A DNA stretch of 64,000 nt, taken from NCBI GenBank assembly GCA_036172245.1, contig JAYWIR010000005.1, forward strand, positions 2,356,001 through 2,420,000, in the 5' to 3' direction. Origin of the DNA: Raillietiella orientalis (lineage: Eukaryota). Position 1 is the stretch's first letter, and each line of letters begins with the position of its first letter. A program made the translations under genes and the position numbers. This document shows, piece by piece, positions 1 to 64,000 of the stretch. Under the pieces are notes generated by a model. The model searched no databases. It had not been told where the DNA came from and saw only the letters and a program-made list of their open reading frames with translations.

Positions 1-3000
1 TTCGGGAGAAGCCTCACACGGGCTGATCGAAACGAGGCGGGAACGTCGCCTTCGTCTCGGATCAGCCCGGTCAACTGGAGCACAAGAGAGGCCAGCTCTG
101 TCGCGAAGCATTGAAAAAATTCCGCAGGCAGGCCGTCCTGCCCTGGCGCCTGACGTCTCTTGAGCCTTTTAATACCGGCGAGAATTTCACCGGTAGAAAA
201 AGGCTCGTCGAGGCTGATGCTCTCCTCCTCCCCTATTGCCTGGCCTCCGTCCGGAAGCAGGAGCCTCGAGGCGTCCCGCTCTGGGAATGCCCAAGCGTAG
301 AGGGAGGAATAATAGTGTTGCACGAGGTGCCTGATCGCGGGTGGGGAAGATCGCTCTCGGCCCTGGTCGTCCATCAAGCTGGCCTACCCGGATTGCCATT
401 GTTGGCGCTCGGCCCCGGCTCGATATTCGGCCAGCTGACGGACATTGGGGGTCCTCTCGTACAGGTGGTATTGTAAATAGGCCCTATGGTTCCGAGCACC
501 CTTTCCAAATCCGGGGGGCAGGCGGTGCAGGGGGAACTCCTCGCAGAACTCGCGGACCGAGGCCTTGAAGAGGTCCCAGTCTTTGAGACTGCGGAGGGTG
601 ACGCCTCTCAGGAATTCGCGAAGGTGTTCTTTCGCACCTGAGAGCCGCATCCAGTCTTCAGGCAATCGCCACGCCCTAACCGGTGGTCCTTTATCGCGCG
701 GGCATATCTCGGCGATTAACCTGGAATGGTCCGACAGCGTCGACGCAACTTTTCCTGGTTTGCGGACCCGCGAGCACAGGTCGACATCCAGAAAGAAGTG
801 GTCGATGCTGCGGTCCTTTCCCTCCGCGTGCTCCAACAAGTTGCGCGTGCGCATGGCAGCGCAAAACACGTTGGCCGTTCGTTCTTGTGCTTCGGGCTCA
901 CCTGACAGCAGACGGAGATTAAAGTCCCCAGCTATCAGGTGTGCCTTCCGCACGTTCGTATCGGCCAGCCAGTCGCGCTTCAGGGTTTCCAGCAGCCTGG
1001 TACGGTCGCTGTATCCCCCTTTTCCGCAAGGGGCGTACACGTTCGTGACGATCAGTTCGATCGAGTCGTACCAGCTGAGAATCAGCTGACCGACCCGACC
1101 GTCGTCATCGAAGCGTACGCCCTTCACGGCAGCGTCGATGGCCGGCTTCACGAAAAACGCGACTCCACAGGTGTTGCGGGCGCCGCATCGCCAATACAGT
1201 CGACCCCCCCGCGATCGTCTCGATCTCCTGGACGTCTGCCGAGGTTATCACGTGGATCTCCTGCAGCAGGGCCAGGTCGAACTCACGCAGGGTGTCGGCC
1301 GTATCGTCTGTTCCTGTCGTCGCGCAGCCCGTTGACGTTCCAACTGGCCACGCGTATTCGACGGCGACAGGCGAGCACAGGTTTTATTCCTGGGAAATCA
1401 ACTCTGCGGCGGGACGCTAGTTAGGGCAGGAGGGACAGGTGCCTCGAGCACCTGGTCCCCCTGCTCCATCGGTGACGAAGCGTCGGGCGGGTCACCCTCC
1501 GGTGGGTACGCGCCTACCTGTTGGCCCTCCTATATACGGGTGGGCTGTACAGGGTCCGCGCCGGCAGGGAGGACTTCGCCCCCCTGCTCACCCTCCTCCA
1601 TGGGGGTGGCCTGCTCGACGACTTCCGCGCGTGGGATTTCCCCCTCCGGGATTCCCACGCTGCCGTCAGCTTCCTACTTCTCCTCCTCGCTCGTGGAGAG
1701 GAGGCGCCTCCTCGGCTTTTGGGACTTGCGTCCCGACTTCCGGGGGGGTACCTCCGACGAGGAAAATGCACTTCCGGCCCCCAGGCCGCACTCACCTGCG
1801 GGCCTTCTTCGGCGGAGCCGGCCTTCGCACGGCCCTGCGTGAGGGGTTCTCACGCTCGGCCAGCGTGGCCGCGAGCTCCTCCTCCGCCTGCGCGAACGCC
1901 GCGTCCTCGCTTTCGGCGCGCGCTTCGCGCGGCTCACCCTCTGTGCAAACAGAGGGTTCGTCGTCGCGAACCTCGGGCGCGGCGGAAACGGCGAGGGGAG
2001 GCTCGTCGCCCCGGGTGGCAGCCTCGGGGACGGCAATCCGTTAGAGTGCCACCGTGCACTCGCAAAGGGTTTTCGAGCGCGGACCGGGTTTATTCGGTTT
2101 CGCTCTCTTTTCTCTCTTCGCTCTCGCGGGTTCCACGGGGGAACTTTTTTTTCTTTTCTGGCCTTTACCAGCTTCCATCCTTCTTCCTCTCACGCGTCTT
2201 CAGCGGGTTTTTCCTCCGACGTCTGGGTGGGAGGAACAGGAGATGGCGGCTGGGGCCGGCCAGTTTCGCTAGAAGGTCTTTCGACCTTTTTTCCTTTTTT
2301 GGCCTGCGTCTTTTTGGCAGCAGTTTGCACCGGGGTGGGGCGTTTGGGGCACACACGAGGTACGTGTCCCTTAACTCCGCACAAGTGGCACTCGATATTC
2401 GGGCACCGCTTGCGCAAGTGCCCTACTGCATCGCAGTATCCAAAATAGCAGTGTTTCCCCACGTAGCAGAGGTCGACGGATTCCTTTGCGACCTCCAGTT
2501 TGTGGGGCAAGCCACTGCCCTCATTAACTGTTACACGCGCAGCGGCCTGGCCTCCGAAATGGCTATTAAAGCCATCGAAAATGGTAGGCTTTGGCCACAA
2601 CGCGTGTATCTCACCGTACTTACTTAGTGCATTACTCACCGCAGATCGCGTCTTTTGGTTCGTAATGCCGGTTAGATGGACCACTACGGAGCGGTCCATG
2701 CAAACCGGAAGGATCTTCCGTCCATCCACATTCAGCGGGGTGTTAATGAGGCGCTGTGCTAACCCTACGTCTTTGCAGACGACCTCCACGCGCTGCCCCC
2801 CGCTGAGTACGCAGAGGCCGTCAAGATCCTCCTCGGGTACAGGGAAATCCTGTAGTGCCCTACTAAAAGCCCGGGCGGTGCGACCATCAAACAGGGGTTC
2901 TACCTTATAAACCAGAGATGGTTTATATCCGGAGGCCCTGTAGGCCGCTTGCTCTGCCAAGGTTTCCGCGCTCGGCGCGGAAACCATGGAGCTCCACGTC

Positions 3001-3207
3001 CTCGGCGTTGTCGGGGATGATTCCGGGGTGGACGCCCCTCATTCTGCAGGCTGTGGGGGTGGGCAAGCCTCCCCCACACCTACCTCCATCGTGGTGTCCT
3101 CAGGCATCGCTGCCATCGGACACCAACGATGTTCCACACGAACACACACAAAGAAAAAACCGCTTCCTGTCGACTCGCTCGGGAGCTCAGGAAAAGCACG
3201 TCCGCTC
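1..3207 (-). mobile_element. L1/Tx1-like non-LTR retrotransposon, subfamily B, 5' part (5' end, ORF1, APE, linker); runs off the left edge; disrupted
   Basis: 5' motif GAGCGGACGTGCTTTT (revcomp, ends ~3207). ORF 2190..2987 has two CCHC knuckles (CDAVGHLRKRC, CHLCGVKGHVPRVC). ORF 384..1151 has APE motifs NVYAP, GDFN, IDH, SDH. KAPGQDGLPAEFF is encoded near 120-160. Confidence 0.93.
1386..3116 (-). pseudogene. ORF1 (gag-like, zinc knuckle), frameshifted
   Basis: Pieces 2190..2987 and 1674..2036 are homologous to the intact ORF1 at 45275..47371; ends with ...SQE*. Confidence 0.85.
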
Positions 3208-6135
3208 GCCAAGGGATTTGGGGAAGGGCCGCGTGACGAAAGGTGCTATCTTCAGGCACGACGTTACGTGAGAACCCTCGACATGCGCAGGTTAGCAGAG
3301 TATCGAGCGGGAGCCGAGAGGCAAGCCTGGCAATCCGGGTCAACTAGCTTCCTGGACGACCATGGCCGGGAGCACTCGGCTCCTGCTCAGAAGCGCGGGA
3401 TTGTGAAGAAATTTTACTCCTCCCTGTACGCCAGGGCGCCTTCGGAGCAAGACGTCTCACGACTTCTGCTTCCGGAAGGTGCTCCAGCGATCGGGGAGGA
3501 GGAGAAAAGAAGCCTCGACGAGCCTTTCACAATGGACGAGATCCTCTCGGCCATCGGAAAGCTCAAGAGGCGGAAGGCTCCACGGGAGGACGGCCTGCCC
3601 GTGGAGTTTTACCAAACTTTTGCGGCTGAGCTTACCCCCCTGGTACAGCAACTCACCTTGCTGATTCGAGAGACAGGTGACGTTCCCACCTTGTTTCGTT
3701 CAGCAAAGGTGCGGCTCCTCCCGAAGGGAGGAGACCTAAGGAGCAAGAACAACTGGCGTCCCATCACAATAGTGAATGCGGACGCCAAGTTGATAGCCAA
3801 GATGTGGGCAGGGCGTCTGGGACGGGTTGCCAACATCTTGATCAGCCCGGAACAGCCTTATGCTGTTCCCGGGCGGAGCATGGCGGCGAACCTGATCCAC
3901 GCTTCCACATGGTTAGAGCTCCAACAAGGAAGGGGCTTATTAAGCAGCCGGAATTCCGGTGCGTCCGTTGGCGGGAGACGAAACGGTTGAGTGGGGAAGG
4001 GAGCCCTTGCGGTCGCTGTCGACTTGCGTAAAGCATTCGACAGCGTCGACCAGAATCTCCTGCTGGAGCTTCTGGAACGCTTGAGCTACCCGTCCTCTTT
4101 GTTGGCCTACCTGCGCTCCAGCTGGCGCGACGAGCTTATTAATGTTCTTGTCAGCGGGCCAACCGTGCACAGAGTACCGGTGCGTAGCGGCATACGGCAG
4201 GGAGACAGCCTGGGCCCCCTGCTCTTTAGCGCCTTTTTTGAATTGGTGCTGAGAGCGTACAGGGAGACTCTGACGCAGCTTATGCGCGATTGTCTTGGTA
4301 CGTGTGCGGTTTCGGCATAAGAGGACGATCTTCTGCTTCTGCTCCCTATGTCCACCCCGGCTGCGGCGGTCGAGGAGTTCTTCGACCTGCTGCATCGGGG
4401 AACCGGACTTACGGTGAACAGGGCGAAGTCGTCCGTGATGCCAGTTGGTGCGGCGTGGGCAGGGCAGCAGGACTGGGTCCATTTGGGGATCCCCACGGTG
4501 AGGTACTTCAAGTACCTTGGTGTGCCGTTGGGGGACTACTCCCCTGCGGAAGCGTGGTCCGGCTGCCTTCAAAAAGTAGAGACGGCGATCGGCCCGTTCC
4601 GAGGCGGCAGGTTTTTCCTGCCTGAACGGGCCGCGGTTTGGAACACGTTCGCGGCTCCTCTTCTCCGGCCCCTGCTTTCTGTTTGCCCCTCCACAGAGAG
4701 GATTAAAAAGCGGACAAAGGACCTCCTCCGTATCGCCCTTTGGGGCAACGGGAGGGCCCGAGTCCGCTCAAAGGACTTGTGCGCTCCTCGTCGGGATGGT
4801 GGTCTGGGCCTCCTGACGCTGGAGCGGCTGGAACTTCAGCTCCAGTTCCGCTTGTCGGCACTCGTTCCAGAGTTGTGGTGCACCTGTTGGTGCGTCCCTG
4901 CACGTCTCCTTCTCCAGCAAGCCACCGGCAAGACGGGACTGACGTCGTTTCTTGCACTCCGTCGCCGCGTCAACCGATGCGGACTCCAGCTACGGAGGGT
5001 GGCTGTGCTGTATTGGAAAAACCCAGGATTGGTCACCTGTCGCCCTCTGAACGGTTGTGCCTGGTTGCAGGAAACCGTTCGAACGTGGGGACAGTTCGGC
5101 ATGCAACACTCCCTACAGTAACGAAGGTTCCTGTTTGGGGGTTACAGAATTTGCACGCTCCGCGAGATTGTGGAGGATCCAAAGAAGAGAGCGTGGGTAG
5201 GAAGAACCCCCCTCGCTGCTGCGCTGCCCTCCCTGATGGAAGACCTGGACAGCGATGTTGCGGCGAAGTGGGTGGTTACAGTAACAATCTCCAGAAAGGA
5301 GAAGAATATAGGAGAGTGAAAGACGGGCCGGTTAACAGACGCTGCGACCCCGAGTACGCCTCCCAATGGACTTCTGCGCTGGGGCGCGCTGTTCGATGTT
5401 CCCATTGAACATCTGAAGTGGCCCCAGGTGCTCATGAACACTTCCGCCCTCCCCTTAAAATGGCAGGAGTCGGCTCTTTTGCTGCAGCACTGGGAACTCC
5501 CCTGCAACGCCCGCCGACTCCACTGGACCTGAGGAGCGGTGGACCCCAATTGCGTCAGGTGTGGGGAACGGGACTCACTCCCCCACCTGCTAGTGGATTG
5601 TGTTGCCCTTCGGCCCCTTTGGTTTCGCTTCGCCGCGGCCATCGGAATCCCCTGCGGCAACCCCAGGGACTCACTGAAAGCCCTCTTCGTTGCCGACGCC
5701 CTTCGGCCAGCGGCCATGTTAGCAGCTTTGTGCTGCCTACGCGGGATCGTTTCCGCTTGGAGCAAGGCTACGGCAGTACAACGCAACCAGGGTGCCATCC
5801 AGCCAGCCACCCAGTTCCAGAGGAGGGCGTCCCGATGGCCTCACCTGGATCTTTGAATACAGAAGGAGCTTGCCGGCATCCTGCAAAGGATGCAACGCCC
5901 CACCAGCAGCTGTGATCCCTTCCCTTACCCTCCCAACTTTTCTTTTCTTTTTTTGTTTGGTTTTTTGTTTTTCCCCTTCCCACTGCTGCCGTGGTGGACC
6001 GTACCGGTCTGCGAATCGGTAACCCGGCAGGCTCTGTGTTTCCTCGTGGGTGGCTGGAGCAATGGTCCAGCCACCGCACGTCTGTGTAAATGTTTATTTT
6101 ACAATAAACGCCCCGGCGAAATCCGGGTGAAAATC
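3208..6135 (+). mobile_element. L1/Tx1-like element, subfamily A, ORF2 linker-RT-CCHC plus 3' UTR (host remnant right of the 1-3207 insertion)
   Basis: KAPREDGLP, WRPITIVNADAK, DLRKAFD, GIRQGDSLGPLLF, *EDD (decayed YADD), KYLGV, CVRCGERDSLPHLLVDC. Terminal AATAAA-hairpin at 6103-6135. Confidence 0.93.
6103..6135 (+). terminator. Conserved 3'-terminal AATAAA + GC hairpin (representative copy)
   Basis: AATAAACGCCCCGG-CGAAAT-CCGGGTGAAAATC; 12 copies, each at an element 3' end. Function is inferred. Confidence 0.65.
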
Positions 6136-6666
6136 GAACGCCTTGTGGAGATCGACCGCGACCGCGAACGCACCTGCGTTCCTTCCTGCCGTAGGCGCCT
6201 GTTCTTTTTGCCTGCGGCAGTGACTTTTGCAGCAGCCTGGCTTTGCTGCGCCACAACTTCCTGCAGCTGCATCTATGTACGCGCGAAAAGGATGTTCGCC
6301 TCTATGGATCGTCCCTGAACCGCGTAGGTTTGTTTCGGGCTCACCACAGATTCCGCGATACTTCCTAACCGCGCGACCCACAGCTTGGAAAACAACTTGA
6401 CGTCCGAAGATCATGTCCGTGGCGGACATGATCTTCGCCATCGAGAAAGGCTCCTCGAGTTGATGTTTCTGCTCCTTCTGTAGCGCGGGGGCGTTTTTCG
6501 GAAGCAAGCGCTGCGCCACGGCGCGCTCTGTTGTTCTACGCGCGTACAAAAAGGAGTAAAAGTTCCAAAGAAAGCGGTTTATTTTCGCGGCAGCTGAGCA
6601 TTCCTGGCCTTGGGCGTCCAGCAAGCTCGCTGACCAGGATTGCCAGGTCTGTCGCTTAGCCCCAGC
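6136..6666 (-). mobile_element. Chimeric ORF2 fragment (subfamily D linker joined to subfamily E RT up to DLHKAFD)
   Basis: 6420-6666 matches 30975-31220; 6136-6405 matches 62750-63020. The join carries a palindrome at 6405-6437. Confidence 0.8.
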
Positions 6667-7844
6667 TCAGCCAGCATGTTGGACGAACTGGCCCGGAAAC
6701 GTTCGTCCCCGTCTGCGGTACGGAATCTCGTGCGGTGTTTTTATTTCTTTCTTTACGCCAAAACACCATCCGAACGGGACGCCTCACGGCGATTGCTCAT
6801 GAGTTTTTCCGTGGCGATAGGGGAGGAGGAGAGAGAAAGCCTCGATGAGCCTTTCACGACCGGTGAAATTCTCGCCGGTATCAGAAGGATCAAAAGGCGT
6901 AAGGCGCCAGGGGAAAATGGCTTGCCCGCAGAGTTCTTTCAGAGTTTCCCGGAAGATCTGGCCCCCCTGGTGCTCGAGTTGACAAGGCGAATCCGAGACG
7001 AATGCGATGTTCCCGCCTCGTTTCGGTCAACCAGGGTGAGGCTCCTCTCGAAGGGAGGAGACCTCAGGATACTTTGCAACTGGCGTCCGATCACGATTGT
7101 GAACACGGACGCCAAGTTCATCGCCGGGCTGCGGGCGTCGCGATTGGGGCAGCTGTCCAATTCCATAATTAGCCCGGAGCAGACTTACGCTGTTGCCGGA
7201 CGAAGTATGGAGGACAACCTCTTCTTCGCAAGCACACGGATGCACGCACAACGGAGTAGGAAAGAAGGGAAAGGGAAAATTTGCAACACAACTTTGGGTC
7301 CGCCAGTGGGATAGGGTAGTGACCCTCATGCGGGAAAGGAAGCCTTAGCAATCGCAGTCGACCTCCATAAAACATTCGACTGTGTTGACCAGGAACTCCT
7401 CTTGGATCTCCTGGATCGCATGGGCTTCCCACCCTCCTTGATTACCTACCTGCGCTCTTGCTGGCGGAACGCGATAATCTCGATTACTTCCAGTGGTCAA
7501 AAGGTGTAGGGCGTGCCGGTTCGGCGGGGCATAAGGCAGGGCGACAGCCTCAGCCCCCTGCTCTTTAGCATCTACGCTGAGTTGGTGCTGAGAGCGTACA
7601 GGGTGACTTTGGCCCCCTTGCCGAGCTCTTGCCCCGGCACGCCAGCCGTAGCAGCGTATGCCGACGATCTTCTGCTCCTCTTACCTATGTCCACTCTGGC
7701 AAAAGCAATCGGAGAATTCTTCGACCTGCTTAGCCACGGGGCCGCATTGCAAGTTAGCAGGGCAAAGTCGTCGGTGGTGCCATTTGGAGCGGCGTGGGCA
7801 GGGCAGCAGGACTATGTGTGTCTGGGGATCCCCACGGCGAGGTG

Positions 7845-7972
7845 ATTCTCAAGATCTTCTTGAGAATTGTATGTTTTCATGATTGTAGTCATTGCTTGAT
7901 GGTTTATTTGATGATTAGGTGGGGTAGGTAGTTATTATTTAAGAGGAAAATGATAGATAGGGATGGGAATGT
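7845..7972. other. ~130-bp AT-rich foreign insertion inside RT
   Basis: Interrupts the conserved GIPTAR-x-KYLGV stretch and is absent from all other copies in the window. Confidence 0.8.
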
Positions 7973-9409
7973 ATAAGTACCTTGGTGTGCCGTTGGGTGA
8001 CTACTCCCCTGCGGAAGCGTGGTCCAGCTGCCTCGAAAAAGTCGAGACGGCGATCGGCCCGTTCCTGGAAGGCAAGTTTCACTTGCCAGAACGGGCCGCG
8101 GTTTTTAACGCCTTCAAGGCCCCCATCCTCCGCCTCTTGCTTTTTGTTTGCCCCGCCCCGTGAAATCTAAAAAGCGGACGAAGGACCACTTCCGCATAGC
8201 CCTTTGGGGCAAGGGGAGGCCCCGCGTCCCTTTGAAGGACTTGTGCGCTCCGCGTCGGGACTGCGGTCTCAGCATCCTCACGCTGGAGCGTTTGGAAATC
8301 CAGCTGCGATGGCGAACCCTTGTCATCGCAGCGAAGATGTGGAGCACCGCTTGGTGCTTTCCAGCCCGCCTCCTGGCCAGGCGTGTGTCCCGATGCGAAG
8401 GAGTCGTGTCGTTTCTTCTGTGCCCAGGCCGGAAGATTCGAAGATGCGGTCTACTGCTCGGCCGCATGGCAACCACCCGGGAAGGAGAACGACTGAATGG
8501 TTTGTGGCCCCGTTAACTCCTCCGCTTGGCTGGAGGAAAATGCTAGCACCTCGGCCAAGCAGAACTAGATGTGCGAAGACCGGATGAACTGCCTGCGAGT
8601 CGGCTTTTACGCCCGCCGAACTCTCCGTGAAATTCTTGAATTTCCACTGAGTTGCACGTGAGCGGAAGGGACACTCCTTGCTACGGCGATGTCCTTCCTC
8701 CAAAAGGTGCTTAACGAAAGCCGGAAGCCGAGGTGGCAAGTCTGCTGCCGTATCGTAGACAGAGAGAAGATGATGAGCGGCTGGACCATGGGAGTTGACA
8801 GATGCGAGGACCCCTAGTCTCCAGCGTCGTAGATTAAGAAGATGAAGCGAGCTGCTCGGCATTCGATTGGATGACCTGAAGTGGCCCCCGGTTCTACTTG
8901 GATCCAGGATTCTTCCCCTGAAGTGGCAAGAATCGGCGCTTCTGTGGCTGCATTGGGGTCTACCCTGCAACGCGCGCCGCTTCCACTGGACGCGGGGAAG
9001 AGTAAATCCTGCGTGTGCCAGGTGTGGGGAGAGGGAGTCGCTCCCCCACCTCTTAGTTGAATGTCCTGCCGTCCAGATTCTTTGAGATCGTTTCAAATCG
9101 GCCCTTGGGATACCGGATGGTGGCAACGTTAGATTCGTTTACAGTCTTGTCTTCGTGCGGGACGCCCTCAGTCCAACCGCAGCCCTAAGAGCACATTGCT
9201 GCATTTGTGGTATCGTGGCAGCCTGGAGTGATGCCCAAGATGAAGACTGCATCGTAAGGGACGTCATCGAGTATGCTGTTCGCTTCCTGCAGAGAGCTAC
9301 TCGATGGCCCCATCTGGGAAAAATGAAAATGGAACTCGAAGGCATCCTGCAAAGGATGGGCCCTCCCAGCAGTTGTCTGTGATCCCTTCCCGGCCCTCCA
9401 AACTCCTTT

Positions 9410-9468
9410 TGTTGTTTTTTTGTTATTATTTTTATTATTATTATTATTATTTTATTTTATTTTTGTTT
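9410..9468 (+). repeat. (TTA)n / T-rich microsatellite expansion in a 3' UTR
   Basis: ttattatttttattattattattattattttatttt. Confidence 0.85.
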
Positions 9469-9631
9469 TCTTCCCCATCCCCTTCCACTGCCGAGGAGAG
9501 CCACACCGAACTACGAACCGGTGTCCCGGCAGGTCCGGTATTGCGTGGCCGTCAGTGAGGTCTTGTACCACGTTCTGTAATGACTGTAGACATGTTTTTT
9601 AATAAACGTTTCGGCGTACCCGAGTTGCATC

Positions 9632-10093
9632 GCCTAAACCTGAAGTGAGAAGGTTCAAGGGAAACTGGTCGCAGAACTCGCGGAGTGAGTTCTTCAAGTC
9701 GTCCCAGTCTGCGACTTACTGCAGATGGAAGCCTTGCAGGAACGAGCGAAGATGTTGCGCTGCTCCTGCGAGGCGCACCTAGTTCCTTGGCAAACGCCAC
9801 GCTGTGGAGGGTGGACCTCTACCGCGCGGGTCTATTTCTAGCACGAGCCGGGGATGGTCGGAAAGTACGGATGGTACTGCCCCTCGATTTCCCACCCGCG
9901 AACACAGGTGGTTGTCGAGCAACATGTGGTCGATCCTCGTCTCCGTCCCGGCGTCACCGGCCAACAAGTTGCGCGCGTGCATGGCGGCGCACATCTCGTT
10001 GACCAGCTGTGCGCGAATGTCGGGTGCGTTGAAGCAGGCGGACGTTAAAGTCCCCGGCAATGAGGTGCGCCTTTCGCATGTGTGCTTCGGTAA
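9632..10093 (-). mobile_element. APE C-terminal fragment, subfamily D
   Basis: KAHLIAGDFNVRLL..APDIRAQLVNE..RIDH..SDH..FPLNLLTSGLG; close to 53040-53491. Confidence 0.85.
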
Positions 10094-13000: not shown

Positions 13001-13180
13001 TTACTTCTCGGCGCTGCTGCTGCTGCTGATGATGGTCCCCGGTTGCACTCTTTCCACACTGGCGTTCACTCAAACACTTGCCCTCTCAGGGCACTCAAAA
13101 ATTGCCTTGGCAGTGGTTTTAAACACTGCCTTGGCGGGTTATTGGGTATAGTTTTAAACTAGCAATAATCACGCCTCCCT
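10094..13180 (-). mobile_element. Divergent L1-clade element: 5' UTR, ORF1 with three zinc knuckles, APE; 3' part missing
   Basis: ORFs 12134..12997 and 11406..12071 (CTGCKQFGHRAGAC, CFRCGKVGHQVRNC, CSFCKKHGHAEGSC). APE motifs WNVNG, LQETH, GVAVL, NVYGP, GDLN, IDH, SDH in 10776..11372 and 9779..11146. Lower GC than its neighbours. Confidence 0.88.
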
Positions 13181-16100: not shown

Positions 16101-16420
16101 AGGTGGCATCATCTGCCCAGAAAAGTCTCCAGGGAAGTCGCCATTGTCAAAGAGCGCTTCTAGAAAGATGAGGAATGTTTACTACCAAAGATCCGTGACC
16201 CCACCCTCCAGTGTTTTTTTTTGTTTGTTCCCTTATGTTTTGTTTATTCTGCAGACCTCTCCCTCCGTTCCTTTCTTTTGGAAGGCACCCTGCGTGCCGG
16301 TGAACTTTCGGAACTGAACTTACTGTATGGGCGTTTCTTGTGTCTCAAAAGGATGAATTTGCCTTGAAAATTGTACTTCGTTTTTACAAATAAACGTCCC
16401 GGCGCAACCGGGTTCAAAAC
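13181..16420 (+). mobile_element. L1/Tx1-like element, subfamily E-like: ORF1 tail, APE, RT core deleted, C-terminus and 3' end
   Basis: TAATG at 13906-13910. APE in 13887..14438 and 14445..15017. Sequence jumps from SSLYA to RVRLKDL at ~15010. CLRCGAIEALTHLLLEC. Terminal motif 16389-16420. Left boundary approximate. Confidence 0.87.
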
Positions 16421-26359: not shown

Positions 26360-26376
26360 CACAGCGGGGATTCGGC

Positions 26377-50869: not shown

Positions 50870-50900
50870 CCACTGTTGGACGATGCGGCCCACCTTCGCC

Positions 50901-53491: not shown

Positions 53492-55610
53492 GATGTTACC
53501 CGGATACGCCAAGACGTTTATTAAAAACATTTCAACAGTCAATACAGAACGTGGTACAAGGCCACACTGACGGCCACGCTATACCGGAACTGCCGGAACA
53601 CCGGGACGCAGCTCGGTGTGGCTCTCCTCGGCAGTGGAGGAGGATTGGGGAGAAAAAAAAATAAAAGAAAAGAGAAAAACAAACCACAAAAAAAAGTTTG
53701 GAGGGCCGGGAGGGGATCACAGAAAACTGCTGGGAGGGCCCATCCTTTGCAGGATGCCTTCAAGTTCCATTTTCAGTTTTGCTCGATGGGGCCATCGGAT
53801 AGCTCTCTGCAGGAAGCGAGAAGCATACTCGATCACGTTCCTCACGATGCAGTCTTCATCTTCGGCATCACTCCAGTCCGCCACGATACCACGAATGCAG
53901 CAAAGTGCTGCCAGGGCTGCGGCTGGACTGATCGCGTCCCGCGCGAACACAAGACTGTAGACACATCCAACATTGCGAGCATCCGGTATCCCAAGGGCCG
54001 TTTTAAGACGATCCCAAAGAATCCGGACGGCAGGGCATTCCACTAAGAGGTGGGGGAGCGACTCCCGCTCCCCATACTTGGCACACGCAGGATTTACTCT
54101 TCTTTGCGTCCAGTGGAAGCGGCGCGCGTTGCAGGGTAGACCGCAATGCAGCCACAGAAGCGCTGATTCTTGCCACTTCAGGGAAAGAATCCTGGATCCA
54201 AGTAGAACCGGGGGCCACTTCAGGTCATCAAATCGGATGCTGAGCAGCTCGCCTAATTTTCTTAATCCACGCGGCTGGAGACTAAGGGTCGTTGCTTCTG
54301 TCAACTCCCCCATGGTCCAGCCGCTCATCATCTTCTCTCTGCCTGCGATACGGCAGCAGACTTGCCACCTTGGCTTCCAACTTTTGTGGAGCTCCCTTTG
54401 GAGGAAGGGCATCGCCGTAACAAGGGGTGTGCCTTCCGCCCACGTGTACCTCGGTGGAAATTCAAGAATTTCACGAAGAGTTCGGCGGAAGTAAAAGCCG
54501 ACTCGCAGGCAGTTCATCCGGTCTTCGCACCTCTAGTTCTGCTTAGCACAGGTGCCAGCAGTCTCTTCCAGCCAAGCGGAGAAGTTGGCGGGCCCACAAA
54601 CCATCCAGTCGTTCTCCTTTGCCAGGGTTGCCATGCGGCCGAACAGTAGACCGCATCCTCGAATCTTCCGGCCAGGGCACAGAAGAAACGATGCGAGTCC
54701 TTCGCAGCGGGACACATGCCTGGCCAGGAGGCGGGCCGGAATGCACCAAGCGGTGCTCCACATCTTCGCTGCGATGGCGAAGGTTCGCCATCGCAACTGG
54801 ATTTCCACGCGCTCCAGCGTCAGGATGCTCAGATCGCCGTCCCGACGCGGAGCGCACAAGTCCTTCAAAGGGAAACGGGGCCTCCCCTTGCCCCAAAAGG
54901 GCTATGCTAAGGAGGTCCTTCGTCCTCTTTTTAACAACTCCTGGGGCGGGGCAAACAAAAAGCAAGAAGCGGAGGATAAGGGCCGCAAAGGCGTTCAAAA
55001 CCACGGCCCGTTCTGGCAAGTGAAACTTGCCTTCCAGGAACGGGCCGATCGCCGTCTCCACTTTTTGGAGGCAGCTGGACCACGCTTCCGCAGATGAGAA
55101 GTTTGCGAACGGCACACCGAAGTTCTTGATGCACCTTACCGTGCGAATTCCCAGATGGACCCAGCCCTGCTGCCCTGCCCACGTCGCTCCAACTAGGAAC
55201 ACCGACGACTTCGCCCTGTTAACCTGTAATCCGGCCCCACGGCTAAGCAGGTCGAAGAAATCTCCGAACGCCTTCGTCCGGGTGGACATAGGTAAGAGGA
55301 GCAGAAGATCGTCGTCATACGCCTCTTTGGCTGGCGTGCCGAGGCACGAGCTCGGCAATGGGGCGAAAGTCACCCTGTACGCTCTCAGCACCAACTCAGC
55401 GTAGGTGCTAAAGGGCAGAAGGATTAGGCTGTCGCCCTGCTTCATGCCCCGCCGCACCGGCACGCCATACACCTTTTGTCCACTGAAAGTAATCGAGATT
55501 ATCGCGTTTCGCCAGCAAGAGCGCAGGTAGGAAATCAAGGAGGGTGGGAAGCCCATACGACCCAGGATCTCCAAGAGGAGTTCCTAGTCAACACAGTCGA
55601 ATGCCTTGTG
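53492..55610 (-). mobile_element. Subfamily B' element, RT (from HKAFD) to 3' end
   Basis: Inverted homologue of 7365-9631; ORFs 54543..55574 and 53717..54517. Confidence 0.92.
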
Positions 55611-56996
55611 CGCTCTAGGGCGGACGTGTTTTCTCGGTGCTTCTCGTGCCAGGAAGTCTCCTCCAGTGCAAGCGTCGTGTGTTTCGGTGGTCAATCAGGC
55701 AGCGATGCCTGACGCGACCACCAGGGATGGCCAGGGGGCAGCGGCAACGCCGCCCCAGAAGCGATGGAGAGCCAGGGGGCGGCGGCAACGTCGCTTCCAG
55801 AGGCGATGGAGGTGGGGGCGTCCGCCCTCACAGAAGCGATCGCCGCTGGAGCGCGGGCGTGGAGCGCCGTTGTGTCGGCGCCATCGCCTGCAGCCGCGGC
55901 GGAATTGTCGGCCTATGTAGAGGAGGGGTATAACCCCTCATTGTTCTACAAGGTAGGCAATTTATATTCTTTGGAGACCGCGCGCGCCTTCTCGAAGGGC
56001 ATGCGCGCTCTTGATGTGAAAGAGGAGGAGCTCAGCGCTATGACCATGCGCAGCGGGGGTCAGTACGTTGAGGTCATCTGCAAACATGCAGAGCTGGCCC
56101 AACGACTACTTAAAACCCCCGTTGTGATGAAGACGCGCAGGCTCCTCCCCACTACGGCGGACCGCACCATGGTGGTCCACCTGTTAGGCGTAACCGCGCG
56201 AATGCGCAAAGAACAGGTTCGCGCCGCTTTGGAACAGTTCGGAACGGTCCACGCGCAGTGGACGAAAGTAAGTCCTTTCTAGGACTACACGGGACTGCAA
56301 CACGGCCTCACTGCTGCGCGCGTGATCGTTCGGGAGGGCTACACACTTCCCCACAAACTGGTGGTCGAAGGCGGAACCTCCGACCTCTGGTATGTGGGGA
56401 AGCCGAAATACTGTGGCTTCTGCAATACGTCGGGCCACCTCAAAAAGAGGTGTCCCAACGTGCAGTGCCAAGTATGGAAAACCATAAGAAACACGACGGA
56501 GGTGTGCCCTAAAGCAGCAGTGCGGGTGGTTTCCAAGAGAAACCTTAAAAAACGTGCCCGGCTTCTGCCGAAAAGGCTGGCGGCGAAAGCTGCCGCGAAG
56601 ACTGTGCCACCCGCGCCCATGGTCCAGGCCGCACCCGAGACCCTGGCGAACAACGCCAAACAAGTCGAGGGAACATGCCAGGAGCCTCGGTCGCAGGTGG
56701 CTACGGCCAAAAAATTAAGAAGGAGAGGAGGATGGAGAAAAAGCTCGCGTACCTTTAGAAAAAACAGCAGGCAAACGAGCAAATTAAAGAATGCAGCGTT
56801 GTCGTCGAGCGTATTCTCGACCGCTGCAAAAAACAACTTGCCGCTACCGACGACCACCCCTCTGTTGACTCTGTCAACAGCGAGGGGAGCGAGCCGGCGG
56901 CGGCGTCCGTCATCGACACCACCATCGATGACGTAGCCTCCGCGAGAGCCGCGGAGGAGCTGGCAGCCTCGTTGCAGCCAGAACCCTCCGCGGCCA
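55611..56996 (+). mobile_element. Subfamily A element, 5' end and most of ORF1
   Basis: 5' motif GGGCGGACGTGTTTTC; ORFs 55764..56282 and 56322..56936 are homologous to 38180-39640. Confidence 0.9.
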
Positions 56997-59306
56997 GTAG
57001 GAGGACATGTTTTTCCTTCACTCCCCAAAGAGTAGTAGGAAAGCGCTTTTTCTTGTGTGTGGTGTTTTGTGTACATCGTCGGTGTCCAATGGCCACGACG
57101 CCAGAGGACACCGCGATGGAGGTGGGAGTGGGGGAGGCTAGTTCGCCCCCACAGCCTACTGGAGCAGGAGCAGCCGCCCCGGAATCATCCCCGGCCACGC
57201 CGAGGACATGGAGCGCCATGGTGGCCGCGCCCAGCGCAGAAGCCATGGCGGAGATGGCCGCATACAAGGCCTGAGGGTACAAGCCTTCGCTTGTGTACCA
57301 GGTAGGCAACTTGTTCGACGGCCGGACAGCGCGCGCCTTCCGCAAAGCGTTGAAGGACGCGAATGTCACAGAGAAGGATCTGGACGGCCTCTCCGTCCTC
57401 AGCGGCGGGCAGCGGGTCGAGGTGGTCTGCAAAGATGTCACCTTGGCTCACCGCCTTATCCATGCGCCGCTGAACGTAGACGGCCGCAAGATCCTGCCAG
57501 TATCTATGGACCGCTCCGTGGTGGTCCACATGACTGGCATCACCAGCCGCATGACGCGGTCAGCGGTTGGTGAGGAATTACGGAAGTACGGTAAGGTGCA
57601 CGCACTGTGGCCGAAACCCTCCATTTTCGACGGCTTCGATAGCCTTTTTGGTGGGCAGGCTGCAGCGCGGGTCACCGTACGGGAGAATTGTGGGCTTCCC
57701 CACAAACTACAGGTGGCGCAAGAAAACGTCGACCTATGGTATGTAGGGAAGCCCCGGTATTGCGGGCATTGTGATACCGTGGGACACCTACGTAAAAGGT
57801 GTCCCAATATACAATGCCATTTGTGCGGGGAGCGGGGCCACGTTCGGCGCGTGTGTCCCAAACGCCCCACCCCGGTTCCCCCTGCCGCGAAAAAAGCGCA
57901 GGGGAAACGCGCTTCAAAGGTCTCTAGACCTAAAGTAGAAAAGGGCCAGCACAAGCTGCCAACACCTCAACCTTCAACGCGTAAGCCGGAGGATAAACCT
58001 TCTGAAACGGTGGAAGGCGAAGAGGGATGGCAGCTTGTAGAGGCCAGAAAGCCGAGGAAACTCCCACCCGCGGAGAGCAAAGAGCGCAAGACGGCCGGTA
58101 AGCCGAAAAAACCCGGTCCGCGCTCGAAAACTCTGCGCGAGTGCACGGTGGCACTGGAACGAATCGTCGTTCCCGAGATTGCGACCCGGAGCGTCGATCC
58201 TCCCCTTGCCGTTTCCGCTGCGCCCGAGGCTCGCGACGGCGAACCCTCTGTTTACACAGAGGGTGAGCCGCGCGACATAGCGGCGGTCGAAGCCGCGGAC
58301 GCCGCGTTCGCGCAGGCGGCGGAGGAGCTCGCGGTCACGCTGGCCGAGCGTGAGAACCCCTCGCGCAAGGCCGTGCGAAGGCCGGCTCCGGCGAGGAAGG
58401 CCCCCAAAGGTGAGTCAGACCTGCGGGCCGGAAGCACATCCTCCTCCTCGGAGGCACCCCCCAGGAAGTCGAGACGCAAGTCCCAGAAGCCCAGGAGGCG
58501 CCTCCCCTCCACCAGCGAGGAGGAGAAGACGGAAGCCGTCGCCAGTGTGGGAAATTCGGAGGAGGAATTCCCACGCTCGGAAGCCGTCGATGCGGCCACC
58601 CCCATGGAGGAGGGTGAACAGGGGGGTGAAGTCCCCCCTGCAGGCGCCGACCCTGAACAGCCCGCCCCCATGGAGGAGGGCGAACAGGTAGGCGCGACTC
58701 CACCTGCGGGTGATCCGGCCGACGCGCCGGCACCGATGGAGGAGGGCGACCAGGTGCCTTCAGCACCTGACCCCCCTGCTCCACCTAGCGTCCCGCCCCA
58801 GCAGGTGGCGGACGCCGCACTGCCATCTTCCCAGGAGTAACACCTGGGCTCGCCAGTCGCCGTCGGATTCGCGCGCCCTGTTGGAATGTCAACGGGCTGC
58901 GCGACGACGGTAACAGGCGAGATACAGCCGACACCCTGCGGGAGTTCGACCTTACCCTGTTGCAGGAGATCCACGTGATCACCGCGGCAGACGTCCAGGA
59001 GATCGAGACGATCGCGGGGGGTCGGCTGTACTGGCAATGCGGCATCCGCAACACCTGCGGGGTCGCGTTCTTCGTGAAGCCGGCCATCGACGCTGCCGTG
59101 AAGGGCGTGCGCTTCGATGACGACGGTCGGGTCGGTCAGCTGACTCTCGGCTGGTCGGACTCGATCGATCTGATCGTCACGAATGTGTACGCCCCAACCG
59201 GTCAAAGGGATACAGCAACCGTACCAGGCTGCTTGAATCCTTGAAGCGCGACTGGCTGGCGAACACGAGCGTGCGGAAGGCTCACCTGATAGCGGGAGAT
59301 TTCAAT
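56997..59306 (+). mobile_element. Subfamily B element, 5' end, ORF1 (one premature stop ~57272) and APE up to GDFN
   Basis: 5' motif GGAGGACATGTTTTTCC; ORF 57293..58840 ends SQE*; APE follows. Confidence 0.92.
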
Positions 59307-59326
59307 CGAGTGCGGACGTGTTTTTC
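59307..59326 (+). promoter_or_regulatory. Conserved 5'-terminal motif GCGGACGTG(T/C)TTT (representative copy); candidate internal promoter/initiator
   Basis: Recurs at element starts ~3207(-), 19107(-), 26359(-), 30873(-), 38119, 47434(-), 55619, 57001, 59311; variant at ~50906. Function is inferred. Confidence 0.6.
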
Positions 59327-61306
59327 TTCGCTCTCGTCTCCGTGCTTTCATCCGCTTCATCTTGGCGTCGTACATTTTGACGACGATGTCGACCCAACTT
59401 GAAGCTACTGAAGTTGGAGGAGCAGCATATGGATCTGCAATCGCGGAACCGACGGCCGCCTCCACTTCGTCATTCTCGCTAATGGAGAGGAGTTTTGCTG
59501 ACGTTGCTGCCACAGCAGTAGTCGAAGGGAAGCCACTCGACGAGTCGGAGTTGCGGGCATACGTAGCCGAAGGCTATAGACCTGCTCTCCGATATAAGGT
59601 GAGTGGTTTTCTTTCTGCGCGCGACGGGAATCAGTTCAACGATTAACTGACCCGTGTTGGCGTGCGGGAGGAGGACCTTCTCGCCATTATGCCCGTAAAA
59701 GACATGGGCTATTCCAAGGTGCGTTGCAAAGACGCTGCACTTGTGCAACGCTTGCTGCGCACCCCGTTGTCGATCCGTGGCCAGAAGGTCTTCCCGGCAT
59801 CCATGGACGACTCATTTGTGGCAGAGATTTTCGACATCGAGTCGGAAGTCTCCGATACTGATATTCGGAACGCGTTGGCGAAATTCGCCACGGTCCATGC
59901 GCTGTGGAGGGTGCGTAGCAACCTCAAGGACTTCCCGTCCATACACAGCGGAGTCGCTGGAGTCCGGCTTACAATGCCGGACCGCCGTCTGCTGCCCACC
60001 CAACTACAGGTGAAAGACACGGTCGTTCACCTGTGGTTCGTGGGCAAAGTAAGAACGTGCGAGCAATGCGAAAAGGAGGGGCATTGTTTGGATAAATGCC
60101 CCTCTGGAAAATGCCGTTATTGCAAACTATCCGGGCACCAATTGAAAAATTGCCCGGATCTTTTGCGAAAAAAGGCAGCCGCGGAGCTCCATCTTAGAAA
60201 ACAAAGCGCGGATAAAAAGAAAAAATCTGCGAAAAACCTGGAGATTCACGGCAGAAATTCCGAAAAAACGCGAGGCGGAATGTCGCCCCAAAGCAGCAGG
60301 AAACCTCGCACGCGAAGCCCTGCGCGTCCCCTCTCGCGGCAGGGGAGCCGCAAAAGAAAGGGTGCGGGGAATCCGGGGCAATGCTAAGTCCCCCTAGGCG
60401 CAATAGCTGTCCTTCGCAAGCACGCCCGGCTCTTTCGGAGTTCGAGCAACCGGCGGGGACGCCAATGGACAACAACGGTAAGGAGAATTCCAGTACCGTC
60501 AGATCCATTCCTTCACTTCCTGCAGTGGCTGAGAAGCCCAAATCGGGTAAGAAGGGTTGTGCCGTGTCGACTTCGAAAGTCGGCAAAAAAAAATCCGCGT
60601 CGCCACCCAACACCGGGAAAGCGGAGAAAACTCTCACGCCGTCGCAGTCGGAGAGCAAGCTCTCGACTGGCGCGGATGCCATGCCAACGAAGGGATTAAA
60701 AGCCCTTCCGAAGGCAGCGTCCATGACGAGCGTGTCGGAGCCATCGAAAGTGCTCCCGTCCAAAGACGCGGACGGCTTCAAAGATGGCAATGGAACACAA
60801 TCTCCATTTACGGCGCCACGCGAAGTGAGGAACCGTAATGAAGTAAAGAAGACTTCAGCAAAGGTCCCTCGCGCAACTGCGCGTGAGCACGCTGAAAACG
60901 CGCGCGCCGGGAAAGCAGCCGTCACCAAAAGCGATGCTCTGGAGACGGAAAAAGACAACAGGACAGCTGTCAATCCGGAAGAACCTGTCACTACTTCGCG
61001 GAAGGCCGAAACTCGATCGAACATGCGCCGGTCGGACTCCGAAATGGATGCCGTTCCGATCACCGAGACGAGGACAACTCGTTCGAAAGCGTGTGCGCAC
61101 CGATTAATAGTAGGCAGCCAGGCAACGCTCGCCGCGAAGCCACGCGAAGTCTCCACGAAACCCGACGGGGTTAAGCCTGGCGTGGAGGCAGTACATGCAT
61201 GCAGCACGACAAAAGACGGTGGCGACCGTCCCCTCCAGCCAGTCGTGCTGCTCGCCGTCTGCTCGCCGGATAAAGCGAGTAAAAAGCCGCCACCTTCCCA
61301 GCAGTA

Positions 61307-64000
61307 ATGCGGGGAATCGCGTCTTCTCGTTGTCTGTCCGTAACGTGTTGGAACGTGAACGGACTACAGAACGACGAGAAGAGGCGATTAGTAGCCAACG
61401 CCCTGCGCCCCTTCGACCTCGCGCTCCTGCAGGAGATTCACGTAATCTCCGACGAGCAGGCGGCCGAAATCGAGGAGCACGCAGGCGGAACGCTACATTG
61501 GCGGTGCGGCGGCGCACACACGTGCGGCGTCGCGTTCCTCATAAGAGGAAAAATGGCGGAAGCGGTGCGTGGTGTTCGTTTCGATGACGACGGACGGATA
61601 GGCCAGCTTGTCATCAAGTGGTCCGAGTCCATCGATCTCGTCGTTACGAACGTCTACGCGCCGAGTGGCTCTCGCTACCTCGAAGAAAGAGTAGCTTTCT
61701 TTGGTGAGGTGCAGAGCCACTGGCTCAACAACTCCGGCTTCAAAGTGGCGCACCTCGTCGCTTGGGACTTCAACGTCCGCCTGCTCTCCGACGATTGGAG
61801 CCGCCCGAGGGAGCGCGCGCTGCCCATCGAGATGTGCGCGTCCGTGCACGCCGCCAACTTGATGGTCAGCGAACCTGGAATGGAAAGATCGCTCGATCAC
61901 GTTTTCCTCGATAAAAACCTGCATTCGCGTGTGGGTAGGAGAGGAAGATTGTTGACTAGGCTTTCTGACCACCACAGGTTGGAGTTTGAGATCCTTCCGC
62001 CAGGCAGGGGGCCTCCGTTGCAAAACTGGAGGATGCAGGCGGATTGGCTTAGCCAACCGGAGGCTGCGGAGCATCTACGTGGATACCTCCGAGGCTTTGC
62101 CATTCAGGAACTTGCGGACTGGGACGATGTCAAAAGATCTGTCCGCGAGTTCTGCTGCCAATTCCCCTTGCACCGGCTTCCATGCGGTTTCGGAGAGGGC
62201 GTGGCCAACAGTAGAGACTTTCTGCAGGCCCGCACGTTTTCGAGACTCGCGGATGTCGGGCGTCTCGCAGAGTACAAGGCGAGGGCCGAGCGCCAGGTCT
62301 GGCAGTCCGGAGCAGCATGCCTGTTGGACGACAAGGGCCAGGAATGTTCGGCCCCAGCCGAAGTACGCCGCATTGTGAGACGCTACTACTCCTCGCTCTA
62401 CGCGGAATCCCCGACGGAGGATATTCTTTCTGAGATACTCCTATCTCAGGATGCTCGTGTTGTCGGCGAGGAGGAACGAGAACGTCTCGACGAGCCCTTC
62501 ACGGCGGATGAATTTTCATCCGCCATCGCTGGGCTGAAGAGACGAAAGGCGCCAGGCGAGGATGGGCTCCCTGCAGAGTTTTATCAGTGCTTTGCAGTGG
62601 AGCTCATTCCCTTGATGCTGAAACTCGCGACGCTGATGAGTGAATCCGGGAATGTCCCAGATTCCTTCCGCTCAGCGAAGGTGCGTCTCCTGCCGAAAGG
62701 CGAAGACTCGCGCCAACTTAACAACTGGCGTCCGATCACCTTGGTGAACTCGGACGTCAACTTGTTTTCCAAGCTGTGGGTCGCGCGGTTAGGAAGTATC
62801 GCGGAATCTGTGGTGAGCCCGGAACAAACCTACGCGGTTCCGGGACGATCCATGGAGGCGAACATCCTTTTCGCGCGTACATGGATGCAGCTGCAGGAAG
62901 TTGTGGCGCAGCAAAGCCAGGCTGCTGCGAAAGTCACTGCCGCAGGCAAAAAGAACAGGCGCCGACGGCAGGAGGGAACGCCAGGTGCCTTGGCGGTCGC
63001 GGTCGATCTTCACAAGGCGTTCGACTGCGTAAACCAGAAGCTCCTCTTGGAGCTTATGGAACGCCTTGGGTTCCCGGCGCAACTCCTGCTGTATTTGCGC
63101 GCGTGCTGGCGCCACGCGCTAACCTGCATCACTTTTAGCGGCTGCCGCGTGTATGGTATTCCCGTTCGTAGGGGCATCCGACAGGGCGACAGCTTAAGCC
63201 CGTTGCTCTTCAGCATCTTCTTTAAGTTGGTGCTAAGAGCATACAGGCTGACGCTGTCTCACTTGCCAAGCTCCTGCCCGGGAACGCCTGCCGTGGCCGC
63301 CTACGCTGATGACCTGCTTCTTCTGCTCCCCATGTCCACCCCGGCGTACAGTGTCGAGGATTTCTTCGACCTGATTCGTCGGGGAGCGGGCGTGAGCGTG
63401 AACAGAGAGAAGAGCGTGGTCGTTCCTGTGGGTACGTCGTGGGAGGGGCAGTCCGACTGGATCCGCCTGGGGATCCCCACGGGCGGGTACTTTAAGTACC
63501 TTGGCGTTCCGTGGGGCGCTTTCGGCGCAGCCGAAGCGTGGGCGGACTGTCTTCAGAAAGCAGAGTTGGCCATCAGCCCGTTCTTTAACGGCAAGTTTAC
63601 CTTGCAGGAACGGGCGACTATTTGGAACACCTTTGTGGCCCCCCTCCTCCGTCCCCTGTTTTTTGTTTTGGACCCCCCCTATGCGGCGAAACAGCGGGCT
63701 AAGCGCCTGCTCAGGAACGCTCTCTGGGGTCTGGCGAGATCCAGGATCCGCCTTAAAGATTTGTCAGCTCCGCGTCGGGATGCTGGTTTGGGTATCCTGA
63801 CAATGGAGCGAATCGGACTGCAGGTGCAGTTCCGACTGCTGGCACTGTGTGCCCAGCTATGGACATCCCCCCTGTGTGTGCCAGCTCGCATTCTCCTGCG
63901 AAGATGCGCCGGCAGCGGAGGATTTCTCTCGCTTTTGCCGGGCACTCAATACAGAAAGCGGGGTTTCGGGTTTCCATTGCGGCAGTTGACCGCACTTCTA
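61307..64000 (+). CDS. ORF2 APE-RT, apparently uninterrupted for 898 codons to the window edge (not in the ORF track because it has no stop)
   Basis: Starts MRGIASSRCLSVTCWNVNG. AYADD at 63299-63313 and the last codons are in the same frame, and the track lists no terminated ORF in this frame. GDFN reads WDFN. Confidence 0.85.
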   Translation, partial: MRGIASSRCLSVTCWNVNGLQNDEKRRLVANALRPFDLALLQEIHVISDEQAAEIEEHAGGTLHWRCGGAHTCGVAFLIRGKMAEAVRGVRFDDDGRIGQLVIKWSESIDLVVTNVYAPSGSRYLEERVAFFGEVQSHWLNNSGFKVAHLVAWDFNVRLLSDDWSRPRERALPIEMCASVHAANLMVSEPGMERSLDHVFLDKNLHSRVGRRGRLLTRLSDHHRLEFEILPPGRGPPLQNWRMQADWLSQPEAAEHLRGYLRGFAIQELADWDDVKRSVREFCCQFPLHRLPCGFGEGVANSRDFLQARTFSRLADVGRLAEYKARAERQVWQSGAACLLDDKGQECSAPAEVRRIVRRYYSSLYAESPTEDILSEILLSQDARVVGEEERERLDEPFTADEFSSAIAGLKRRKAPGEDGLPAEFYQCFAVELIPLMLKLATLMSESGNVPDSFRSAKVRLLPKGEDSRQLNNWRPITLVNSDVNLFSKLWVARLGSIAESVVSPEQTYAVPGRSMEANILFARTWMQLQEVVAQQSQAAAKVTAAGKKNRRRRQEGTPGALAVAVDLHKAFDCVNQKLLLELMERLGFPAQLLLYLRACWRHALTCITFSGCRVYGIPVRRGIRQGDSLSPLLFSIFFKLVLRAYRLTLSHLPSSCPGTPAVAAYADDLLLLLPMSTPAYSVEDFFDLIRRGAGVSVNREKSVVVPVGTSWEGQSDWIRLGIPTGGYFKYLGVPWGAFGAAEAWADCLQKAELAISPFFNGKFTLQERATIWNTFVAPLLRPLFFVLDPPYAAKQRAKRLLRNALWGLARSRIRLKDLSAPRRDAGLGILTMERIGLQVQFRLLALCAQLWTSPLCVPARILLRRCAGSGGFLSLLPGTQYRKRGFGFPLRQLTALL

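Follow-up and report, generated by a model that had tools for sequence, protein, structure and literature searches.

How long interspersed nuclear elements (LINEs) that nest in one another find their targets is the question raised by a 64,000-nucleotide stretch of the genome assembly of Raillietiella orientalis (GCA_036172245.1, contig JAYWIR010000005.1, positions 2,356,001 to 2,420,000 of the forward strand), which we call the window and number from its first letter. The same question has been left open for the Zepp-like LINEs of green algae, where a hot spot or chromatin mark has been set against a sequence target (PMC3446292). A preliminary description of the window had proposed that its LINE families use each other as a safe-harbour target with a strand preference, and had suggested that convergent, double-stranded transcripts would result and that the cluster may be a centromere or a block of heterochromatin. 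The analyses reported here make it likely that two sequence-specific lineages of L1-group LINEs target conserved LINE coding sequence, and that in doing so they have built a Zepp-like island composed of LINEs only.

The overall GC content runs between 52 and 63% along the window, and about 90% of it is similar to another copy within the same window (blastn and tblastx, at least 40-50 bits), a higher coverage estimate of 98.8% being inflated by weak high-scoring segment pairs. The stretches without such similarity fall in the fast-evolving first open reading frame (ORF1) and 5' regions of the elements and in positions 12093-13752. The earlier statement that all 64 kb are L1/Tx1-like is nearly right. 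Taking the full-length and nearly intact clade-A element o (41482-47434, minus strand, 5953 bp) as the reference copy, refA, comparisons by blastn and tblastx parsed the window into about 25 segments alternating in strand, and open reading frames in the window encode Exo_endo_phos, RVT_1 and CCHC knuckles.

A hidden Markov model (HMM) made from the 45-nt ends and run over the window recovered 12 3' termini, all with E <= 3e-6 and with nothing further below E = 4. Five are on the plus strand (6135, 9631, 16419, 33826 and 50869) and seven on the minus strand (20574, 26377, 35994, 41482, 47691, 49955 and 53492). All 12 share the end AATAAACGCCCCGG-loop-CCGGGTG..(A/T)C, a hairpin in which 95% of cells can pair, and none of the 12 carries a poly(A) or A-run. 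The elements also have in common the 5' start (G)AGCGGACGTGYTTTT, with 2-9 variable nucleotides ahead of the motif, and the HMM placed ten 5' termini, five on the minus strand (3207, 19106, 26359, 30876 and 47434) and five on the plus strand (38114, 55611, 57002, 59308 and one near 50905); two of them are weak, those at 30876 (E = 0.13) and 50909 (E = 0.0065). The preliminary description had listed the same 12 and ten termini, to within 1 nt for the 3' ends and 5 nt for the 5' ends.

Clade membership, INDEPENDENCE and chance were handled with trees, an identity matrix, synonymous divergence (dS), orientation counts and simulation. Trees of three regions of the second open reading frame (ORF2), together with the identity matrix, gave clade A (a, i, o, j, d and v, with x and s added by identity), clade B (b, q, n/p and w, with k and h loosely attached), clade C (y, g, l, f and c2), clade D (u and e1) and clade M (m and r).

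Two fixed insertion sites in host ORF2

The first site, site A, was found by aligning every copy over refA ~2900-3250, and consists of the codons LPxGFGEG of the host ORF2, about 70 amino acids past the endonuclease domain. Three host pieces, h (19107-20573, plus strand), u (clade D, 50905-53491, plus) and e1 (clade D, 9632-10089, minus, 76% identical to u), are broken there at the identical nucleotide (20573, 53491 and 9632, respectively), after ..GG(A/T)TT(T/C)GG(G/C), the sequence running to the break as ..GAGATTTGGG in h and as ..GGTTTCGGC in u. The breaks are made by the reverse-complemented 3' ends of three clade-A elements, namely i (20574-26359, minus), v (53492-55610, minus) and d (6667-9631, plus). 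The opposite edge of the same site is seen in the hosts b (clade B, plus, from site A at refA ~3025 at position 3208 to its 3' end at 6135) and k (plus, from 30877 to its 3' end at 33826), which adjoin the 5' ends of the clade-A elements a (1-3207, minus, with its canonical 5' end at 3207 and its 3' part beyond the window) and j (26377-30876, minus, with its two termini present but without the greater part of its ORF1 region), and which restart 10-17 nt upstream of the site-A nick. Elements i and j stand head to tail with a 17-bp site-A copy between the 5' end of the one and the 3' end of the other (26360-26376, plus, CACAGCGGGGATTCGGC). All five site-A insertions are antisense to their host and all five inserts (a, i, j, d and v) belong to clade A, with 5' extents that vary from full length in i to truncation at refA ~3150 in d and an interruption at the second site in v. 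The preference of clade A for this site is not strict, because five of its eight events lie there.

Occupancy of site A differs among hosts: none of seven copies of clades A and C is occupied, against five of six of B, K and D (Fisher p = 0.005, or 0.010 with h and k taken as one host, for groups drawn post hoc), which gives only a hint that clade A may spare its own clade and clade C. Approximately 40 nt upstream of the nick the cut hosts h, u and e1 read TGCGACC(A/T)GTT; at the same place the copies of clade A in which the site is free have TGCGAGGAG or TGCGAACAG, and the clade-C copies g and y have TGCTGCCAA. The unoccupied copies n (clade B) and f (clade C) likewise read GACC there. It is possible that the sequence at this place acts as a weak recognition determinant.

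The second site, site B, was found by aligning copies over refA ~3800-3950, and corresponds to the codons HKAFD in reverse transcriptase (RT) motif A of the host ORF2 (amino acids 569-573 of y, with the KAFD motif at 570). The 3' ends of the clade-B elements b and q (47691-49126, minus) follow ..AA(G/A)GC(G/A)TTCGA in c2, at 6136, and in p, at 47690. Here c2 is a clade-C fragment (6136-6407, minus, 95.6% identical to y at 62750-63022) that ends at site B as ..AAGGCGTTCGA, and p (47435-47690, plus, refA 3603-3872) is the rest of n, so that q entered its own lineage. On the other edge, m (clade M, 35994-38113, minus) and v, whose last positions (38113 and 55610) adjoin the 5' ends of n (38114-41481, plus) and w (55611-57001, plus), both clade-B 5' parts, restart at C(A/G)(C/T)AA(A/G)GC.TTCGA, which implies a target duplication of 12-14 bp at site B. 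All four insertions are antisense and all four inserts (b, q, n and w) are of clade B. The 11-mer AARGCNTTYGA occurs nine times in the window, always in KAFD codons, with four of its occurrences at junctions and five free, and none of the 11 other GCNTTCGA 8-mers in the window is occupied by an insertion.

Both sites can be seen unoccupied in y (clade C, 59308-64000, plus), the innermost and most intact copy, where site A (62186) reads LPCGFGEG at amino acids ~291-298, past the APE domain, and site B lies at 63014.

Independence of the events and origin of the antisense excess

A cluster of identical junctions could arise by copying instead of by repeated insertion, through segmental duplication or gene conversion of composites, retrotransposition of a composite transcript, or misassembly. 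Two facts speak for this explanation: d|e1 and v|u are colinear across their junction (84.8% over ~2.1 kb), and the region is entirely repetitive and known from assembly alone. Copying predicts that insert and flank should have diverged equally, however, and they have not. In tblastx-selected codons the inserts d and v differ by a dS of 0.23 and their hosts e1 and u by 0.75; the inserts b and q differ by 0.11, whereas their hosts c2 and p are saturated (pS 0.77); and the inserts n and w differ by 0.51 and their hosts m and v by 0.89. The hot-spot insertions are thus independent hits, because the insert pairs are close and the host pairs distant. The varying 5' extents between events are likewise at odds with copying, and assembly chimeras join like to like in the same orientation rather than placing a complete 3' terminus at a fixed target with 12-bp duplications. 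We consider copying or artefact very improbable as the source of the repeated junctions. In the same codons dN/dS among clades lies between 0.25 and 0.55, and the clades therefore diverged as functioning elements, while for b and q it is near 1, which fits neutral decay following insertion.

Counted by terminus, ten 3' ends are antisense to their neighbour, one is in the same sense (35994) and one is unclear (50869), and the corresponding figures for the 5' ends are seven, two (57002 and 59308) and one. These totals agree with those of the preliminary description, with the caveat that at 26377/26359 the neighbours i and j share a strand and only the 17-bp spacer represents the antisense target copy. 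They also count i, j and o twice, as 19 elements account for the 22 termini. When each element is counted once, and r/t and u are set aside, 17 elements have a flank that can be read and 14 of these are antisense (two-sided p = 0.013); an alternative classification gives 14 of 19 (p = 0.064). That families insert into one another and into themselves is borne out, most junctions being antisense nests.

The excess of 14 in 17 is what would be expected if LINEs recognized LINE DNA or chromatin in general, preferring the antisense orientation and requiring no particular sequence, and the trend away from the hot spots points the same way (five to three, or six to three counting r/t by its 5' flank). 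Nine of the 14 antisense events, however, fall on two nucleotide-exact sites, each used by a single clade. When each hot spot is taken as one draw the ratio becomes 7 of 10 (p = 0.34), and the insertions away from sites A and B give 5 of 8 (p = 0.73), so that the antisense excess of the window is carried by these two sites and there is no sign that the proposed strand preference is a general one. A general strand bias, moreover, does not predict common nick positions: among 1,000,000 simulated sets of 19 random insertions, about one set (1e-6) had at least five of them on the same strand inside 20 bp. We regard general recognition of this kind as improbable.

A further explanation places the selection after insertion, such that same-sense nests, which form direct repeats, would be lost by unequal exchange or single-strand annealing and antisense nests would survive. 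The block does contain rearranged junctions, and ZeppL arrays in Chlamydomonas are described as growing and shrinking by unequal exchange (PMC9977147). Filtering can nevertheless yield neither nucleotide-exact common junctions nor the pairing of each clade with one site; host and insert mostly share 65-75% identity, a poor substrate for homologous exchange; and the sense nests m, x and y persist, y being the most intact copy of all. Such filtering is quite improbable as the origin of the pattern.

Sequence-specific insertion into LINE coding sequence, the reading that we favour, can be cast as the following model. The island, made up of L1-group LINEs of at least five diverged lineages, would have grown by target-primed reverse transcription into resident copies. 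Its elements appear to be built on one plan, in which ORF1 has CCHC knuckles, ORF2 encodes APE and RT, the 5' start is conserved and the 3' end is a hairpin that lacks poly(A). Clade A would nick the sense strand of the host ORF2 after ..GG(A/T)TT(T/C)GG(G/C), in the LPxGFGEG codons, and clade B after ..AA(G/A)GC(G/A)TTCGA, within the HKAFD codons of RT motif A, the target site presumably being read by the encoded endonuclease. The freed 3'-OH would prime the cDNA, the last one or two nucleotides of the host (G, GA or GT) pairing with the RNA-terminal (A/U)C, and the newcomer would always lie antisense to its host because it is the host sense strand that supplies the primer. A second, staggered nick would then give the target duplication of 10-17 bp. 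Fixed orientation would follow from cleavage being sequence-specific on one strand, as with every site-specific LINE, and the confinement of the elements and their orientation would both be explained by two lineages that each cut conserved LINE coding sequence at one fixed nucleotide. These conserved codons may serve as a safe harbour in the sense proposed earlier. Guidance of the insertion by pairing between the RNA 3' end and the target was rejected, only 1-2 nt of complementarity being seen.

Several observations weigh against this model and have to be set beside it. None of the single insertions at site A or site B has a clean target duplication at both of its own ends, the 10-17 bp duplications at these sites being pieced together from different events, and the site-A copies at the end of h, in the i/j spacer and at the start of k differ far more than a young duplication would. 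Three of the eight clade-A events (o, s and x) lie elsewhere, x in the sense orientation, and k, which is distantly related to clade B, occupies a different place that also contains TTCGA, with an offset of its own. The joints c1|c2, q|r and e1|e2 and the t/u spacer are not simple insertions, so that rearrangement must also have shaped the block. The 3' hairpin is conserved, not proven by covariation, because compensatory change affects one pair only, a score equalled by 81 of 500 shuffles. The dS values come from 59-338 codons per pair and are biased to conserved stretches. Finally, there are nine hot-spot events in one window, the sites and clades were grouped after the data had been seen, and the junctions are known from a single assembly. 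With these points taken into account, we still hold sequence-specific targeting by clades A and B to be the likely explanation.

Other nests, rearranged joints and the U4 sequence

Outside the two sites, target duplications that are real footprints of target-primed reverse transcription surround o and s. Element o, antisense in n/p, is flanked by the 12-bp duplication GCCAAG(G/T)TGATA with one mismatch, in the codons DAK(V/L)I. Fragment c2 has its upstream edge within ~10 nt of this place. Element s (clade A, 49955-50204, minus, 250 bp) splits the 5'-truncated clade-M element r/t (49127-50869, plus), whose 3' end is at 50869; on both sides of s stands the perfect 12-bp duplication GGACACACGGGA. 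Three further nests are antisense. The 3' end of f (clade C, 13845-16419, plus, with an internal deletion of refA ~3254-4520) adjoins g (clade C, 16420-19106, minus) at refA ~3515, the 5' end of g at 19106 adjoins h, and the 3' end of k lies in l (clade C, 33827-35993, minus, refA ~2960 down to ~900) at refA ~2960, where the host reads ..GCCGTTCGAGAGCTC up to the junction. The three sense nests are those of m, whose 3' end adjoins l, of x (clade A, 57002-59307, plus), whose 5' end adjoins w, and of y, which interrupts x at the APE codons AGDFN.

Of the joints that are not plain insertions, that between c2 and c1 (6416-6666, minus, 85% identical to k over refA ~3103-3375) is a 27-nt near-perfect palindrome (6402-6432, AGATCATGTCCG CCA CGGACATGATCT) linking two pieces of different clades on the same strand, with ~225 bp of ORF2 missing. 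It looks like the footprint of a hairpin-type repair, and the link between c2 and c1 is a rearrangement and not a simple insertion junction. Because c (6136-6666) combines a k-like piece (85%) and a y-like piece (96%) in one mosaic, the possibility that c and e had formed one host was ruled out. Two joints are head to head between different clades at nearly the same place of the element, c1|d at 6666/6667 (refA ~3103 and ~3150) and q|r at 49126/49127 (refA ~4535 and ~4538). Twin priming or fold-back was rejected for both, as the arms belong to different clades (dS of 1.39 and 1.24) and the coordinates do not fit a twin-priming layout; one idea is that homology guided the joining of the 5' ends through a three-way RNA/DNA junction. 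For the 35 bp that separate the 3' end of t from the 5' end of u (50870-50904), an origin as an ORF2 fragment was rejected, since their sole 11-mer match compares with 0.9 expected by chance.

Segment e is also composite, with a breakpoint near 10090 at which the clade-D piece e1 gives way to e2 (10090-13080, minus), a divergent LINE 5' part with a CCHC ORF1 and its own APE C-terminus and without a canonical 5' terminus. A 455-amino-acid open reading frame spans the e1|e2 joint, the APE C-terminus of e2 being the second such half in segment e. Immediately upstream of e2, and in the same orientation, there is a full-length U4 small nuclear RNA (snRNA) sequence (13081-13218, minus; Rfam RF00015, 89.5 bits, model 1-138 of 138), and the surrounding stretch 12093-13752 has no match elsewhere in the window. 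No TATA-like box was seen ~30 nt upstream of the U4 sequence, and the Rfam scan of the window returned no ribozyme or other family besides U4. Human L1 makes U6 snRNA-L1 chimeras by template switching, and the U4-e2 fusion resembles these; from its arrangement it is probably an snRNA-LINE chimeric retrocopy produced by RT template switching.

Two smaller features concern the interior of the copies. Element d has a unique AT-rich insertion of 131 bp (7844-7974) in the RT region just before the KYLG codons, which begins with the short palindrome TTCTCAAGATCTTCTTGAGAA and is missing in v, a copy 87% identical to d. Tandem repeats of 24-56 bp occur in ORF1 and 5' regions (12702-12868, 24941-25058, 38270-38421, 47007-47267 and 55730-55811), and the repeat units in n (period 42) and in w (period 41) look alike and lie at a comparable distance from the 5' ends.

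Relatives of the elements and meaning of the island

The ORF2 of y, open for 898 amino acids from 61307 to the end of the window, contains Exo_endo_phos (amino acids 15-222) and RVT_1 (466-725), and the best solved-structure match of this 61307-64000 frame is human L1 ORF2p (E = 1.2e-45), with R2 at 5e-15. The zf-CCHC family is found above its cut-off of 20.8 bits in the open reading frames at 45275-47371 (21.7 bits) and 11406-12182 (22.8 bits), and zf-RVT in ORF2 reaches 20.7 bits, under its cut-off of 27.5. A protein search returned 18 matches, the best with 59% identity on a 2.9-kb metagenome contig and the others with 29% or less; the named relatives among the 18 are from Closterium, Tanacetum and Gossypium (22-29% identity), none of the database relatives bears the name of a family, and no Zepp or ZeppL protein is among them. 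The Atlas search gave generic APE/RT clusters only, and a scan of metagenomes gave two short ORF2 loci of 38-40% identity and no match to the site-B junction pattern. Of the label L1/Tx1 used in the preliminary description, the first half is thus supported by the ORF2p match (1e-45), and Tx1 holds as a functional analogy only.

That analogy lies in the manner of insertion. The window elements enter a multicopy target in a sequence-specific way and in fixed orientation (five of five at site A, four of four at site B), and they share with members of the Tx1 and R1 clades (Tx1L, Keno, R1, TRAS/SART) the APE, the single nucleotide position in a multicopy sequence and the fixed orientation. The difference is that the target in the window is the ORF2 coding sequence of LINEs (RT motif A and the linker), that of their own lineage included. 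Tx1L is reportedly paired specifically with the Tx1D DNA transposon. Site-specific APE LINEs are described with targets that include genes for rRNA, snRNA and tRNA as well as microsatellites, telomeric repeats and 'transposons' (PMC4640811). In the literature searched, which did not cover the original Zepp reports, we found no description of a LINE with a fixed target in LINE ORF2 coding sequence. With human L1 (ORF2p structures 8sxt, 8uw3 and 8c8j) the elements share the APE and RT layout, 5' truncation and target duplications of at least 12 bp, whereas the target of human L1 is a loose TTTT/A, its copies carry a poly(A) tail and it is not known to target itself.

The comparison with Zepp is made by described features and not by sequence. 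Zepp, from Coccomyxa subellipsoidea C-169 (earlier known as Chlorella vulgaris), and ZeppL-1_cRei/L1-1_CR, from Chlamydomonas, are reported as green-algal LINEs of the L1 group (PMC3446292, PMC8226300) that nest in themselves; each chromosome has one of the resulting clusters, which are dominated by LINEs and lie at centromeres that are putative or CENH3-bound (PMC3446292, PMC8226300, 10.1101/2025.03.28.645958, PMC11005252). The window elements resemble them in nesting within existing copies and in forming a LINE-only cluster, and to this extent the designation Zepp-type in the preliminary description is apt. It does not fit the 3' end: poly(A), given as (A)n, is the entry for Zepp and L1-1_CR (PMC3472496, Table 1), and the 12 termini of the window have the hairpin without such a repeat. 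Zepp nesting is further said to leave 3' ends arrayed in tandem (PMC8226300, citing Higashiyama 1997), whereas the nests of the window are mostly antisense and at fixed ORF2 codons. ZeppL is not strictly sequence-bound, because a copy can land in a genic region. An antisense rule for Zepp-like nests was not found in the literature searched, the original Zepp reports, which possibly note site preferences, being outside its scope. On these features of sequence and arrangement we file the window elements as L1-group LINEs that have the habit of Zepp and a targeting like that of Tx1 and R1 elements.

In several green algae the centromeres are marked by clusters of LINEs nested in one another, and the window gives a concrete answer, for one block, to how nesting LINEs find each other. 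If that answer is true, the RT gene of other LINEs would be a new class of target for site-specific retrotransposons, and the two sites would provide natural targets of 11-20 nt for the study of APE-type endonuclease specificity. A more far-reaching idea, which we offer tentatively and would not yet favour, is that these LINEs are hyperparasites, and that sequence-directed warfare between lineages, and not the recognition of centromeric chromatin, builds and confines LINE-only islands. Targeting would in such a case read the codons HKAFD (clade B), LPxGFGEG (clade A) and possibly DAK(L/V)I and GDFN, codons that could not mutate away because the change would kill the host element. Were this so, each insertion would inactivate a resident LINE, and the process would account for the Zepp-like, possibly centromeric, LINE-only islands of green algae.

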